Assembly: GCA_965227295.1 (NCBI GenBank)
Contig: OZ245742.1
Coordinates: 3,744,001-3,808,000, forward strand
DNA: 64,000 bases
Direction: 5' to 3'
DNA from: Leptonemataceae bacterium
GTDB taxonomy: Bacteria > Spirochaetota > Leptospiria > Leptospirales > Leptonemataceae
In this document: positions 3,290-22,132 of the stretch, one piece after another
Numbering within the stretch: the first letter of the stretch is position 1
How the letters are laid out: each line of letters opens with the position of its first letter
Program-made: the position numbers and the translations under genes
The notes under the pieces: generated by a model
The model's input: the letters and a program-made list of their open reading frames with translations, nothing else
The model's database searches: none
What the model was told of the DNA's origin: nothing

Positions 3290-4306
3290 ATGCTCCAGTC
3301 GAAAAAACAGCAGCTCTCCGGTCGCCAGAAGGCGGCGATCTTCCTCGTGACCCTCGGTCCGGAGATCGCTTCCGAGATCTTCAAGCACCTGCGCGAGGAC
3401 GAGGTCGAGACGCTCACTTTCGAAATGGCGCGGATCGATAAGATCACGCCGGAGGACAAAGAGTCGGTCCTGGTTGAGTTCAACGAACTCATGATGGCCC
3501 AGGAGTTCATCACGACGGGCGGTATCGATTACGCCCGGGAAGTTCTGGAACGCGCCCTCGGTACTCAGAAGGCGATCGACATCATCAACCGCCTCACGTC
3601 GTCGCTCCAGGTCCGGCCGTTCGACTTCATTCGCCGCACGGACCCGCAGCATCTTTTGAACTTTATCCAGAACGAGCACCCGCAAACCATCGCTCTGATT
3701 CTCTGTTACCTCGAACCCCAGAAGGCCGCGCTCATTCTTTCGTCGTTGCCGCACCAGATCCAGGCCGACGTCGCCAAGCGCATCGCCACGATGGAACGCG
3801 TTTCGCCGGACGTTCTGCGCGAAGTCGAACGCGTTCTTGAACGCAAGCTCTCCACGCTCGCTTCGGAAGATTATACGACGGCGGGTGGTATCGACGCGGT
3901 GGTCGAGGTTCTGAACCTCGTAGACCGCGGCACGGAAAAGACCATCATCGAGGCGCTGGAAGAGGAAGACCCGGAACTCGCCGAAGAAATCAAAAAGAAG
4001 ATGTTTGTCTTCGAAGACATCGTCCTGCTCGACGACCGTGCCATTCAGCGGGTCCTCCGCGAGGTCGACAACCAGGAACTCGCGAAGGCCCTCAAGTCGG
4101 TCGACGCCGAGGTCCAGGAAAAGATCTTCAAGAACATGTCCAAACGCGCGGCCGCGTTGCTCCGCGAGGACATGGACTTCATGGGTCCGGTGCGTTTGAA
4201 AGACGTCGAGGACTGCCAGCAGAAGATTGTGAACATCATCCGCAAGCTGGAAGATGCCGGCGAGATCGTCGTCGCGCGTCACGGGGAAGAAGAGCTGGTG
4301 GTTTGA
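3290..4306 (+). CDS. fliG: Flagellar motor switch protein FliG
   Basis: GRQKAAIFL, GGIDYA, EHPQTIAL, MFVFEDI, MGPVRLKDVE. Confidence 0.97.
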   Translation: MLQSKKQQLSGRQKAAIFLVTLGPEIASEIFKHLREDEVETLTFEMARIDKITPEDKESVLVEFNELMMAQEFITTGGIDYAREVLERALGTQKAIDIINRLTSSLQVRPFDFIRRTDPQHLLNFIQNEHPQTIALILCYLEPQKAALILSSLPHQIQADVAKRIATMERVSPDVLREVERVLERKLSTLASEDYTTAGGIDAVVEVLNLVDRGTEKTIIEALEEEDPELAEEIKKKMFVFEDIVLLDDRAIQRVLREVDNQELAKALKSVDAEVQEKIFKNMSKRAAALLREDMDFMGPVRLKDVEDCQQKIVNIIRKLEDAGEIVVARHGEEELVV

Positions 4307-10252: not shown

Positions 10253-11053
10253 TCACTCGCGTGCCATCATCAACACGCCGTGTTGTGTCTTCGCGATCAC
10301 ACTGTTCTTTTGAAACGACGACATCGCCTCGGCCATGTCCGTGTCACTGATTCGACTCATGGACGCCACCGCGTTCACCAGATAGAAGGCCTGGCCTTCG
10401 ATGCGAAAGGTGAGCACGTTGTCCTTTACGCCGGCAACGATTCGTCGCCGGCTCAGTTTTTTCAAAGCTGCGTCCGCATGACCGACGGCCTCGTACGGTT
10501 GCCGGACAAGATCGATGCGACGCAGGCCCAGAGACTCTGCCGTCAATTCTTCGACGATCAGCTTCTTGTTGAACTGACTGAAGCGCGCGTGCATGTCGAT
10601 CTGCGCTAAGAGTTGATCAATTTCACTTTGGGCGATCTCGCGTTCGTCGGGCCCCATGATGCCGCCGGTGTTGCGGACGATCAATTCACGAATGCGCTGA
10701 ACGATCTGCTGGTTTTGCGCAATCGTGCCTTCGACGTGGCGCAGATAATTACGAAAGTCGGCCGCATTCATGGACTCGCGGCGCAGCCCGCGCACCAGGC
10801 TGTCCATTTGTTCGGCGACGGCCAGGCCCGCCGGGTCGAGGCCCGCGGACGTGATGCGCTCGCCCGAAGCCAACTGGCCGGCGGTTTGATCGAGGCCGGC
10901 GTTGCGCAGGCGGCTCTGCCGTAGAATGAACTGTTGCGTGCCTTTGCGAAGCACGTAGAAGTTTGCGCCGGACGGCTGGAAGAGGGACTGGGCGCTCAGT
11001 GCGGAAGAGGCGAGGGAGCTGAGCAGCAACGTTAGTAACAGGATGCGATTCAT
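10253..11053 (-). CDS. Flagellin-like protein with predicted signal peptide
   Basis: LASGERITSAGLDPAGLAVAE, QRIRELIV, SRISDTDMAE; N-terminus MNRILLLTLLLSSLASSALSA. Confidence 0.85.
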   Translation of the reverse strand: MNRILLLTLLLSSLASSALSAQSLFQPSGANFYVLRKGTQQFILRQSRLRNAGLDQTAGQLASGERITSAGLDPAGLAVAEQMDSLVRGLRRESMNAADFRNYLRHVEGTIAQNQQIVQRIRELIVRNTGGIMGPDEREIAQSEIDQLLAQIDMHARFSQFNKKLIVEELTAESLGLRRIDLVRQPYEAVGHADAALKKLSRRRIVAGVKDNVLTFRIEGQAFYLVNAVASMSRISDTDMAEAMSSFQKNSVIAKTQHGVLMMARE

Positions 11054-11082
11054 GATTTACACTATATCTATATCTGTCGATC

Positions 11083-20439: not shown

Positions 20440-21168
20440 TCACTTCCACGTATCCGCGTACTCGCCGCCGGGATAGCGCAGGTCCACGAGATCCGAAACA
20501 ATCAGCAAATTATCGAACGACAGGGCGACGTCGCCGGGTTTGCTTTTGGGATGCGAACGAATCAGCAGGCCGACGAACCGGTGTTCGCGGCGGCGTTCGA
20601 CGTTGCGTTGCATCTTCTGCAAACTTACGGGTAACGTGAGATCCAGGCGGCGCCAGCCGTGCCACAATAGATCGCCGGCCGGCACGCGGACCTCTTTGCC
20701 CTCGGCGGTTTCGAAGAGTAGTTCCAGTTTATCTCGATACATCGAAGAACGAACCCACAGCGACGCGCGAAACAATCGGCCGGGAATCATCACCGGCTCC
20801 GAAACTTCCAGGCGGTAGTGCTGGCGGCCCGGGACCTCGAACGAGGTATGCACGAACAACGTCTGCTCGCCCACGGCGTTGGTGTTCGCATGTTTCGTAA
20901 CGACCTCGAGTTCGCGCGCGAAGGCCGCTTCGTCCGGGCGCTGATAAATGTAGCGCACGTCCGACAGCATGGTGGAGTTCATCTTCGGTTCGTAGACGCG
21001 GCGGTTTTCGAAGAGGTCCACCGGATACAATCGATACCGGCCGGCGTAACTTTCGATGAGTTGGTCCAGGACTTCCACGCGTCCCTGCGCGTCGTACGGG
21101 GCGGGCAGATCGCGGGCGAATACGGCGCTCGTTAAGAAGAGCGCGCAGATCAACACAAGCCGTCGCAT
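20440..21168 (-). CDS. FlaA-family flagellar sheath protein (divergent)
   Basis: Signal peptide; IPGR..ASLWVRS, L-WHGWRRL-L-LP, FDNL, C-terminal DTW. Confidence 0.75.
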   Translation of the reverse strand: MRRLVLICALFLTSAVFARDLPAPYDAQGRVEVLDQLIESYAGRYRLYPVDLFENRRVYEPKMNSTMLSDVRYIYQRPDEAAFARELEVVTKHANTNAVGEQTLFVHTSFEVPGRQHYRLEVSEPVMIPGRLFRASLWVRSSMYRDKLELLFETAEGKEVRVPAGDLLWHGWRRLDLTLPVSLQKMQRNVERRREHRFVGLLIRSHPKSKPGDVALSFDNLLIVSDLVDLRYPGGEYADTWK

Positions 21169-21220
21169 TATATTAGAATAACGGCAAAAAGCGAAGGATG
21201 CCTGAGAGGATGATGCAGGC

Positions 21221-22132
21221 TCAGGGGTTTCTTTTGCGCTTCTTTTTTGGGCGTCTCGCCGCTGCGCGGCGACCGGGCTTTCCAGGACTCCGCCTTCGGC
21301 TTCGGTCCTCCGCTTCGCTCCGGACTTGCGGCTTCGCCGCAATCCTTCCAATCCCTGACGCGGAAGAGTTTGCATCATCCGCTTCCTTTTCGAACAACGC
21401 GAACAGATCACCCTTACACGACTGTTTCACTTCCGCAAGCACCGCCTCGAATTCCGCTGACGCGAACTCGGCCCCGGGCTGCGGCGGTGATACGCATTCC
21501 ACCGTTTCGTCGCCGAGCTGGAAGCGCAGCGCGTAGGCGTGCAGGTAGGCCCGATCTTCCTGCCTGGCGACATCGTAACGTCCGTACTGGCCGTCGCCCA
21601 GGATCGGCGCGGCGAGCGACTTCATGGCGACCCGGAGTTGATGCGTGCGGCCGGTCTTCGGATGCAATACGTAGAGCCGGAGACCCGGCCGGCGCCCGGG
21701 AATGCCGTAGCTTAAGAAACGTGTAATTGCCGGATTGTTCGTGCTGCGCGCGAGAATCCAGGCGCCGCCGCGACCGCGGATCATGTCGCCGACGATCTTG
21801 CCCTGTTTCTTTTTCGGACTCCGATCCGAGATTGCGAGGTAGATCTTGCGCACACGGCCGTGGCGAAACTCGTTGCCGAGCAGGTTGGCGTTCTTGCGTC
21901 CGCGCGCAAACACCAACAGACCGGAAGTTACGCGATCGAGGCGATGCACCGGGAAGAGTCGCGGGCCGGCGGGAATTTCGCCGGCCTCTTCCATCGCACG
22001 GAGAATCTGCACGAGGCCGCTCTCCTGTTCCTGGCCGTGAAAGGCCACGCCGGGTTCCTTGTGCACGACCAGGTAGTCGTCCGTGTTTTGAACGAGACGC
22101 AGCGGCCGGGGATTCGTATCGCCGCCGGCCAT
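21221..22132 (-). CDS. RluA-family RNA pseudouridine synthase
   Basis: VHRLDRVTSG, TGRTHQLRV, LHAYAL. Confidence 0.92.
   Translation of the reverse strand: MAGGDTNPRPLRLVQNTDDYLVVHKEPGVAFHGQEQESGLVQILRAMEEAGEIPAGPRLFPVHRLDRVTSGLLVFARGRKNANLLGNEFRHGRVRKIYLAISDRSPKKKQGKIVGDMIRGRGGAWILARSTNNPAITRFLSYGIPGRRPGLRLYVLHPKTGRTHQLRVAMKSLAAPILGDGQYGRYDVARQEDRAYLHAYALRFQLGDETVECVSPPQPGAEFASAEFEAVLAEVKQSCKGDLFALFEKEADDANSSASGIGRIAAKPQVRSEAEDRSRRRSPGKPGRRAAARRPKKKRKRNP
21249..21361 (+). repeat. Structured repeat copy C, inside the pseudouridine synthase 3' end
   Basis: GGGCGTC...GGGCTTTCC...CAATCCCTGACGC. Confidence 0.8.

Follow-up and report, generated by a model that had tools for sequence, protein, structure and literature searches.

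To our knowledge, drawn from searches and general background, flagellins are exported only via the flagellar type III channel and never with a signal for the general secretory (Sec) pathway. The spirochaete filament lies in the periplasm, and its sheath proteins, namely FlaA but also FcpA, FcpB, FlaAP, FlaL1 and FlaL2, carry Sec-type signals and reach it from the outside; in the accessible parts of the literature searched, none of them is described as flagellin-like (bioRxiv 10.64898/2026.02.04.703737; PMC9254593). Here we describe a gene at 10253..11053 on the reverse strand of a 64,000-nucleotide stretch (hereafter the window) of contig OZ245742.1 from a Leptonemataceae bacterium, which encodes a flagellin homologue combining a signal-like N-terminus with the loss of both ends of the D0 domain. 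The protein belongs to a small, conserved family found only in genomes of uncultured bacteria labelled as spirochaetes, and we discuss how far it can be read as a flagellin that has left the type III route.

The closest sequence relative of this protein (hereafter the target) is the spirochaete core flagellin FlaB (PDB 6pwb, 9lrz, 9lry), which has the same fold and occupies the neighbouring clade; neither of the two has the variable D2/D3 domains. FlaB keeps what the target has lost, namely the D0 ends (13 residues at the N-terminus, 11 at the C-terminus) and the D1 hairpin, whereas the target alone carries a signal-like N-terminus and a new β-hairpin motif. The hook-filament junction protein FlgL (HAP3) has N-terminal flagellin-type helices in common with the target, but its D0 is complete and it has no signal. 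The sheath proteins, whose route the target would share, have folds unrelated to it. A flagellin homologue in a non-motility setting is the cell-surface protein of PDB entries 3k8v and 3k8w, the D1 domain of which superposes on our model of the target with a root-mean-square deviation (rmsd) of 1.2-2.0 over 160-187 residues (Z-score 17.4-17.5); it is not spirochaetal, bears extra outer domains (296-323 residues crystallised) and presumably lacks a Sec signal. In Caulobacter, a flagellin paralogue acts with FlbT as a flagellin-like co-repressor, a role beyond filament building; according to the accessible text its site of action is the cytoplasm and the flagellar system continues to secrete it (PMC9812332), whereas the target bears a Sec-type signal. 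Within the portions of the literature available to us, the closest ideas are Sec-exported sheath proteins that are not flagellins and a regulatory flagellin paralogue that remains a type III substrate. Full-text searches of the open literature turned up no flagellin homologue with a Sec signal, subscription-only papers lying outside their scope.

A flagellin homologue with a signal-like N-terminus

The source genome (G000) is a single contig of 5.94 Mb, and the window has a G+C content of about 59%. Two sequencing runs of one study contain this DNA and may stem from the source sample, and no RNA run with it was listed. Six loci of this genome match the Flagellin_N profile: four canonical FlaB-type genes (281-317 amino acids), one FlgL-like gene (421 amino acids) and the target gene, an ATG-initiated open reading frame of 266 codons. 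An in-frame stop lies two codons upstream of the ATG, and the stretch before residue 60 offers just two alternative start codons, a TTG at codon 9 and a GTG at codon 34, the former inside the hydrophobic core and the latter inside a conserved motif. Judged from these positions, the annotated ATG is the only sensible start, and a downstream start, envisaged in the first-pass annotation, found no support. The features of the gene are as follows.

10253..11053, reverse strand: whole coding sequence of the signal-bearing flagellin homologue, 266 codons plus stop (open reading frame list and sequence; 100% match to protein P0001)
10991..11053, reverse strand: signal-like N-terminus of putative Sec/signal peptidase I type, residues 1-21, MNRILLLTLLLSSLASSALSA, with a positive n-region (MNR), a hydrophobic core (L4-L18) and LSA before Q22
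10919..10990, reverse strand: family-specific motif, a predicted β-hairpin, residues 22-45, QSLFQPSGANFYVLRKGTQQFILR, in place of FlaB residues 1-13 (the N-terminal half of ND0)
10562..10912, reverse strand: ND0 remnant plus ND1a and ND1b helices, residues 48-164 (Flagellin_N match, PF00669; modelled helices with a predicted local distance difference test score, pLDDT, of 85-97)
10262..10477, reverse strand: CD1 helix plus the N-terminal half of CD0, residues 193-264, Flagellin_C-like (PF00700 below its cut-off; a PDB stretch; modelled helices)
11054..11082, reverse strand: AT-rich spacer of 29 nucleotides from the stop of the upstream methyltransferase gene to the ATG, with TATAGT at 11061-11066, 7 nucleotides before the ATG

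The flagellin helical motifs first noticed at both ends of the protein were recovered by profile and structure searches. Pfam Flagellin_N (PF00669) matched residues 48-164 with profile positions 15-131 of 139 (E 8.2e-16; 58.8 bits against a cut-off of 26.6), and Flagellin_C (PF00700) matched residues 193-264 with positions 4-73 of 86 at 20.4 bits, just under its cut-off of 23. The C-terminal homology is backed by a second stretch in the PDB comparison (E 1e-07) and by the presence of PF00700 in some relatives. The best solved relatives among PDB sequences are flagellins of about 265-286 residues, matching in two stretches with E 1e-27 to 1e-26; they include Leptospira FlaB1 (6pwb) and, in the same E range, 9lrz, whose entry title refers to the core filament of Leptospira biflexa. 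All 25 NCBIfam models listed, among them those for flagellins (e.g. NF009446, flagellin Hag), remained below their cut-offs, the best score being 83.9 bits against 352, and the FlgL/HAP3 model TIGR02550 (E 1.6e-18) reached 67.3 bits, far under its cut-off of 127.2. In Pfam, the FlaA domain PF04620 gave no match in the target at E up to 1; FlaA genes exist separately in the genome.

To describe the N-terminus across an alignment of 49 family rows, we used the hydrophobicity of a 10-residue Kyte-Doolittle window taken before the conserved proline, with a threshold of at least 2.2. The target scores 2.5, and the threshold is reached by 43 of the 47 relatives having an N-terminus but by none of 40 canonical spirochaete FlaBs, whose maximum is 1.38. 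The four exceptions (P0004, P0008, P0014 and P0015) have only 14-22 residues before the proline and look like short or truncated gene calls; the genomic copy of P0004, at locus L007, has the full signal. A hydrophobic N-terminus is likewise present at 17 of 17 genome loci, and the signal is shared by the homologues. The hydrophobic window of the relatives usually follows a lysine or arginine and precedes small-x-small motifs (LSAQ, LNAQ, VTAK, FAAD), and inspection of the target N-terminus revealed neither a cysteine lipobox nor a twin-arginine motif. Across the family the character of this stretch is conserved and its sequence is not, a pattern typical of signal peptides. The signal-like N-terminus is beyond chance; export by Sec and cleavage at LSA/Q remain putative assignments read from the sequence.

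Alignment with the four FlaBs of the same genome, to which the target is 32-35% identical, locates what has been exchanged and what has been lost. FlaB residues 1-13 (MIINHNLSAINSH; the MIINHN...SH start) are replaced by MNRILLLTLLLSSLASSALSA followed by QSLFQPSGANFYVLRKGTQQFIL, the target ends 11 residues short of the FlaB C-terminus (LRPQSVLQLLR), and the variable domain is absent. The first-pass annotation had noted the replaced MxINxN start, the missing last C-terminal segment of D0 and the near absence of a variable domain, and on all three points the alignment agrees with it. To that description we add the deletion, after FNK163, of the 29-residue D1 β-hairpin of FlaB (about MNLLQG...RERVYIG), and a further FlaB block of 8 residues is also gone. 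A complete D0, whose MxINxN... and ...VLxLLR ends pair in the inner tube, is kept neither in the target nor in the family consensus.

The motif that follows the signal-like stretch follows the family consensus LFxPxGANFYVYxRGxxxFIL, in which P27 does not vary across 21 sequences; its mean majority fraction of 0.50 makes it about as conserved as the D1 helices. An AlphaFold2 model of the mature target, computed from 49 sequences after removal of the signal, has a pLDDT of 83.5 and a predicted template-modelling score of 0.62. In mature numbering it places strands at residues 2-4, 11-16 and 19-24 (pLDDT 55-68). Its helices comprise a short one (30-42), three long ones (53-108, 114-137 and 165-215) and a final one (219-236), those at 53-108 and 114-137 having a pLDDT of 85-97. 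The model superposes on filament flagellin subunits with Z-scores of 18-19 over 225-230 residues (18.0 for 9lry of Leptospira biflexa, at 34% identity) and on D1-only crystal structures with an rmsd of 1.1-1.5 over 137-160 residues, and a Foldseek search with an earlier model also matched flagellin structures. The model of the target thus comprises the D1 bundle, the inner half of each D0 helix (ND0 and CD0) and a new N-terminal hairpin. C-terminal β-strands in the earlier model (21 sequences, pLDDT 68) disappeared with 49 sequences and were discarded as an artefact of a shallow alignment. A search of the ESM Atlas that skipped flagellin families returned only unnamed clusters (0.89-0.92) and one FliS co-chaperone cluster (0.84), without a usable lead. 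An idea of charge complementarity was also dropped: the mature target has an isoelectric point of 9.7, but the family median is 8.2 (5.1-11.2) against a FlaB median of 7.1.

Distribution, selection and descent of the family

The family is sharply delimited from ordinary flagellins. A word-indexed search returned 20 relatives of nearly full length with identities of 44-82%, together with a partial one, canonical flagellins coming next at only E 5e-11. When a profile was searched against 1.84 billion cluster representatives, about 22 clusters (at 50% identity) matched end to end in one stretch with scores from 407 down to about 170 bits, and ordinary flagellins matched in two stretches at no more than 163 bits, leaving a gap in the scores. 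Every taxon label seen for the family, named divergent members included, reads Spirochaetota or Spirochaetes. Genome contigs provided 17 loci with a member (L007-L023), all from metagenome-assembled genomes (MAGs), 16 of them labelled as spirochaete (Leptospirales, Spirochaetota, Spirochaetaceae or Sediminispirochaeta); the remaining genome, ‘bacterium bin.39’, carries a spirochaete FlaB on another contig (L062). In public databases the proteins are named ‘flagellin’ or ‘hypothetical protein’.

Scores were bimodal over 401 Spirochaetota genomes: 25 contain exactly one profile-spanning match of at least 206 bits, canonical flagellins reach about 132 bits at most, and one additional genome holds a family fragment interrupted by a TAG codon. 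The 25 carriers span seven families, namely f1 (G000), f35 (13 of about 39 genomes, counted by hand), f27 (2), f53 (3), f15 (3), f50 (2) and f12 (1). No member was found in the three largest families sampled, f2 (0/75), f19 (0/50) and f17 (0/38), the first of which is a large family in the order of the source genome and presumably corresponds to Leptospiraceae. The possibility, raised at the outset, that the target is an already characterized leptospiral paralogue is countered by this absence from all 75 f2 genomes, and no description of it was found in the literature searched.

The architecture described above is kept across 49 aligned relatives, down to 28% identity. The ratio of nonsynonymous to synonymous substitution rates (dN/dS) in four orthologue pairs is 0.115 (window against L007), 0.161, 0.110 and 0.137, the last (L020 against L023; dS 0.43) being the only one well clear of saturation. 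The family is under purifying selection.

Descent was assessed with a quick LG+G4 tree of 86 rows, comprising 49 family members, 22 of 40 FlaBs (the first four, then every second one), 12 hand-picked other flagellins and 3 odd sequences, with an outgroup that is not monophyletic. The family is monophyletic, with a value of 97 in the Shimodaira-Hasegawa-like approximate likelihood ratio test (SH-aLRT), a long stem and long internal branches. It stands beside, not inside, the FlaB clade (22 rows; SH-aLRT 98), and together they are set apart from most other flagellins (SH-aLRT 97) in a group that also holds three hand-picked rows, two of them next to the family (P0044 and P0047) and one next to FlaB (P0065).

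Two of these neighbours deserve description. P0044 and P0047, both short flagellins, begin in the canonical type III style, lack the D1 β-hairpin and branch near the base of the family; by their sequences they may resemble the ancestral state and be possible intermediates. In P0044 the canonical start is MVVNVN, and the annotated start, possibly mis-called, adds a hydrophobic extension. Elsewhere in the tree, P0049 and P0079 are flagellin-like proteins of about 283 amino acids that open with MIIAHDI... and have non-canonical C-terminal tails (...LLFGDFESKN and ...LLYSMNDKKSS); they form a well-supported pair of their own among ordinary flagellins.

The family is therefore conserved, selected, single-copy, deep and monophyletic, with a flagellin fold, and was found only in spirochaete-labelled genomes. 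Its sequences are best explained by descent from the same stock as the spirochaete FlaB core flagellins, with the type III route abandoned. The first-pass annotation had proposed that a flagellin was re-routed from the type III pathway to Sec and the periplasm, and this stands in part, on evidence that is indirect but consistent: the signal is kept throughout a monophyletic family under selection, the D0 ends are gone, and members occur only in MAGs labelled as spirochaete. Delivery to the periplasm, where spirochaete flagella lie, and action there are the part that can be called probable.

Candidate roles for the protein

Our preferred reading, held tentatively and at a little short of an even chance, is that the target is a Sec-exported, D0-truncated flagellin serving as an accessory outer-layer or end-binding subunit of the filament. 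The first-pass annotation had named sheath, cap or partner of the endoflagellum as candidate roles. The precursor would be exported by Sec and cut by signal peptidase I near LSA/Q, freeing a soluble periplasmic protein of about 27 kDa. Because half of D0, including both its ends, is missing and the protein would arrive by Sec, it would not enter the inner tube of the filament via the central channel, and would therefore meet the endoflagellum from outside. There it would contact FlaB in the manner of a flagellin, through conserved D1 surfaces, and the new N-terminal hairpin would cover the exposed D0 remnant or dock onto a partner. Periplasmic action on the endoflagellum is suggested because the family is confined to the phylum in which a Sec-exported flagellin mimic would meet a filament, and because known sheath proteins use the same Sec route. 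The more specific proposal, that this Sec-delivered subunit of flagellin fold joins, decorates or terminates the periplasmic filament from outside, is more doubtful, and we regard it as rather unlikely.

Several observations weigh against a role on the filament. According to the accessible text on Leptospira, Thr137 of FlaB contacts the sheath protein FcpB (PMC13144727); the D1 β-hairpin deleted from the target is the part of FlaB carrying this residue, and because this region is gone the target cannot copy the sheath contacts of FlaB. The conservation of the D1 motifs could stem from folding alone, and confidence in the modelled N-terminal hairpin is low (pLDDT 55-68). Moreover, the family was not found in 376 of the 401 sampled spirochaete genomes and, since it was not found in the three largest families sampled, it is dispensable for periplasmic flagella as such.

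The genomic context weighs on the same side. Scanning covered 79 neighbours from the 17 genome loci and 31 of 64 from nine new metagenome loci, the metagenome scan leaving out five loci that duplicate genome loci and the more distant open reading frames. Flagellar neighbours, which speak for a link to the periplasmic flagellum, occur at 3 of 27 loci, the context of the other 24 being non-flagellar: fliG lies about 6 kb away in the window and about 1 kb away at L007, and at L011 the family gene follows fliF-fliG-fliH-fliI-fliJ, a lytic transglycosylase (SLT) gene and a coiled-coil protein gene on the same strand. These three represent two independent lineages, G000 and L007 being close relatives, and membership of the L011 operon is doubtful because the gene has its own apparent promoter directly before the ATG. 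An all-against-all BLAST of the open reading frames of 18 loci showed no neighbour family common to three loci other than FliG, present in the window, at L007 and at L011.

Among the alternatives, the target could be a periplasmic binder of unpolymerized FlaB or a chain terminator, on the premise that flagellin escaping the growing tip stays in the periplasm in spirochaetes. The mimic could sit on the D1 contact sites, either on stray monomers or at the filament end, blocking off-pathway polymerization or limiting length. The architecture fits, with D1 kept and both D0 ends removed, as do genes that are single-copy and stand alone. Quality control of periplasmic FlaB reportedly exists in Borrelia, where, to go by the title of a 2019 article by Zhang and co-workers, HtrA degrades unfolded flagellin in a fliD mutant. 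The mechanism is, however, without precedent, and the 376 sampled genomes lacking the family face the same problem, so we consider this reading improbable.

We find it improbable, too, that the flagellin fold was recruited off the flagellum altogether, as a structural or binding protein of the periplasm or cell envelope, even though part of the evidence on context and expression leans that way. Besides the 24 loci without a flagellar neighbour and the long stem and internal branches in the tree, there is the example of cell-surface flagellin homologues in the PDB (entry titles of 3k8v and 3k8w). Expression signals also set the family apart from FlaB. No Shine-Dalgarno-like motif was read in the 29-nucleotide spacer before the target ATG, whereas such a motif precedes 54 of 54 FlaB genes; conversely, a -35/-10 pair scoring at least 9/12 and ending 4-10 nucleotides before the ATG occurs in 6 of 26 family genes and 0 of 54 FlaB genes. 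The clearest cases, at L011, L016 and L023, consist of TTGACC or TTGAAA, N17 and TATATT, 6-7 nucleotides before the ATG, and L020 has TTGAAA-N17-TATTTT. These patterns suggest translation from leaderless mRNAs for many members of the family, and regulation unlike that of FlaB, and the TATAGT before the target ATG is a putative promoter element. The sigma-28-type motif TAAA-N13-17-CCGATA was not seen upstream of the target, which would suit a non-flagellar role; it gave one weak match in 18 upstream regions and none before the four FlaB genes of the genome, and is thus uninformative. Set against recruitment off the flagellum are the restriction of the family to spirochaete-labelled genomes and the retention of the most conserved flagellin D1 motifs. 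Spirochaete flaA and flaB genes, moreover, often sit scattered outside flagellar operons.

An uncleaved signal anchor, tethering the flagellin-like domain to the outer face of the inner membrane, e.g. near the motor or along the filament path, appears quite improbable. The target does have a single hydrophobic segment, at its N-terminus, and a leucine at position -3 of the candidate cleavage site (LSA/Q), which is less typical than alanine; but in most relatives a short h-region leads into small-x-small motifs (LNAQ, LSAQ, VTAK, FAAD) typical of cleaved signals, and the best 19-residue hydrophobicity window, at 1.69, is low for a stable membrane helix. Finally, it is hardly credible that the target lacks a function of its own, whether as a FlaB paralogue in decay or through a wrongly called start: truncated termini, an internal deletion relative to FlaB and a Flagellin_C score below the Pfam cut-off might suggest it, but dN/dS is 0.11-0.16, the architecture persists in the 49 aligned relatives despite identities as low as 28%, the frames are intact with one copy per genome and a conserved N-terminal motif, and no plausible alternative start codon exists.

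Neighbouring genes and significance of the family

On the same strand as the target, the window has a methyltransferase gene 29 nucleotides upstream and a phosphoenolpyruvate (PEP) carboxylase gene 89 nucleotides downstream. The vicinity also contains genes for an extracytoplasmic function (ECF) sigma factor, a DJ-1 family protein and a copper ATPase. The fliG of the window (3290-4306, forward strand) is a full-length paralogue of 338 amino acids with N, M and C domains; it stands alone, with a trypsin-like peptidase gene instead of fliF as its neighbour. Across the genome, FliG_C gives three full matches, and a partial one lies immediately beyond the window. At 20440-21411, on the reverse strand, a FlaA-like gene encodes 323 amino acids with a weak FlaA domain match (E 3e-10) limited to the C-terminal part. 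Relatives of its product at 21-31% identity were found in 75 of 75 f2 genomes, 1 of 2 f3 genomes and G000 and in no other sampled family, and the product may correspond to a Leptospira-type sheath-associated protein. A partnership between the target and this gene was considered and rejected, as the FlaA-like gene occurs in no carrier genome besides G000, which gives no signal of co-occurrence.

Some recurrent neighbours were seen at other loci. At L009 and L010 (also L092 and L094), the gene immediately preceding the family gene on its strand encodes a DUF3332 protein, and a terminator-like hairpin comes after it. In this sub-lineage a pyruvate carboxylase gene is convergent downstream of the family gene, its counterpart in the window being the PEP carboxylase gene; this recurrence of an anaplerotic carboxylase is probably a coincidence. 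Genes for cyclic nucleotide monophosphate-binding, GGDEF and adenylate cyclase proteins lie within a few genes of the family gene at six loci, L014, L016, L019, L099, L102 and L104; genes of this kind, for cyclic-nucleotide or cyclic di-GMP signalling, are abundant in spirochaete genomes.

The family exchanged the D0 ends of a flagellin for a Sec-type signal and is confined to the phylum with periplasmic flagella, and it merits an annotation other than ‘flagellin’ or ‘hypothetical protein’. If the target makes no contact with the endoflagellum, it would be a clean case of a flagellin fold recruited to a non-motility role. If, as in our preferred reading, it is an accessory subunit that contacts the endoflagellum, it would add to FlaA, FcpA/B and the sheath proteins described recently a filament component of a new class, and would show a core subunit turned into an accessory factor delivered from outside. 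On the less likely proposal of a subunit that joins, decorates or terminates the filament, there would be a second, type III-independent route for a flagellin to the flagellum, possible only because spirochaete flagella are periplasmic, and the family may give some lineages a handle on the shape or length of their filaments.

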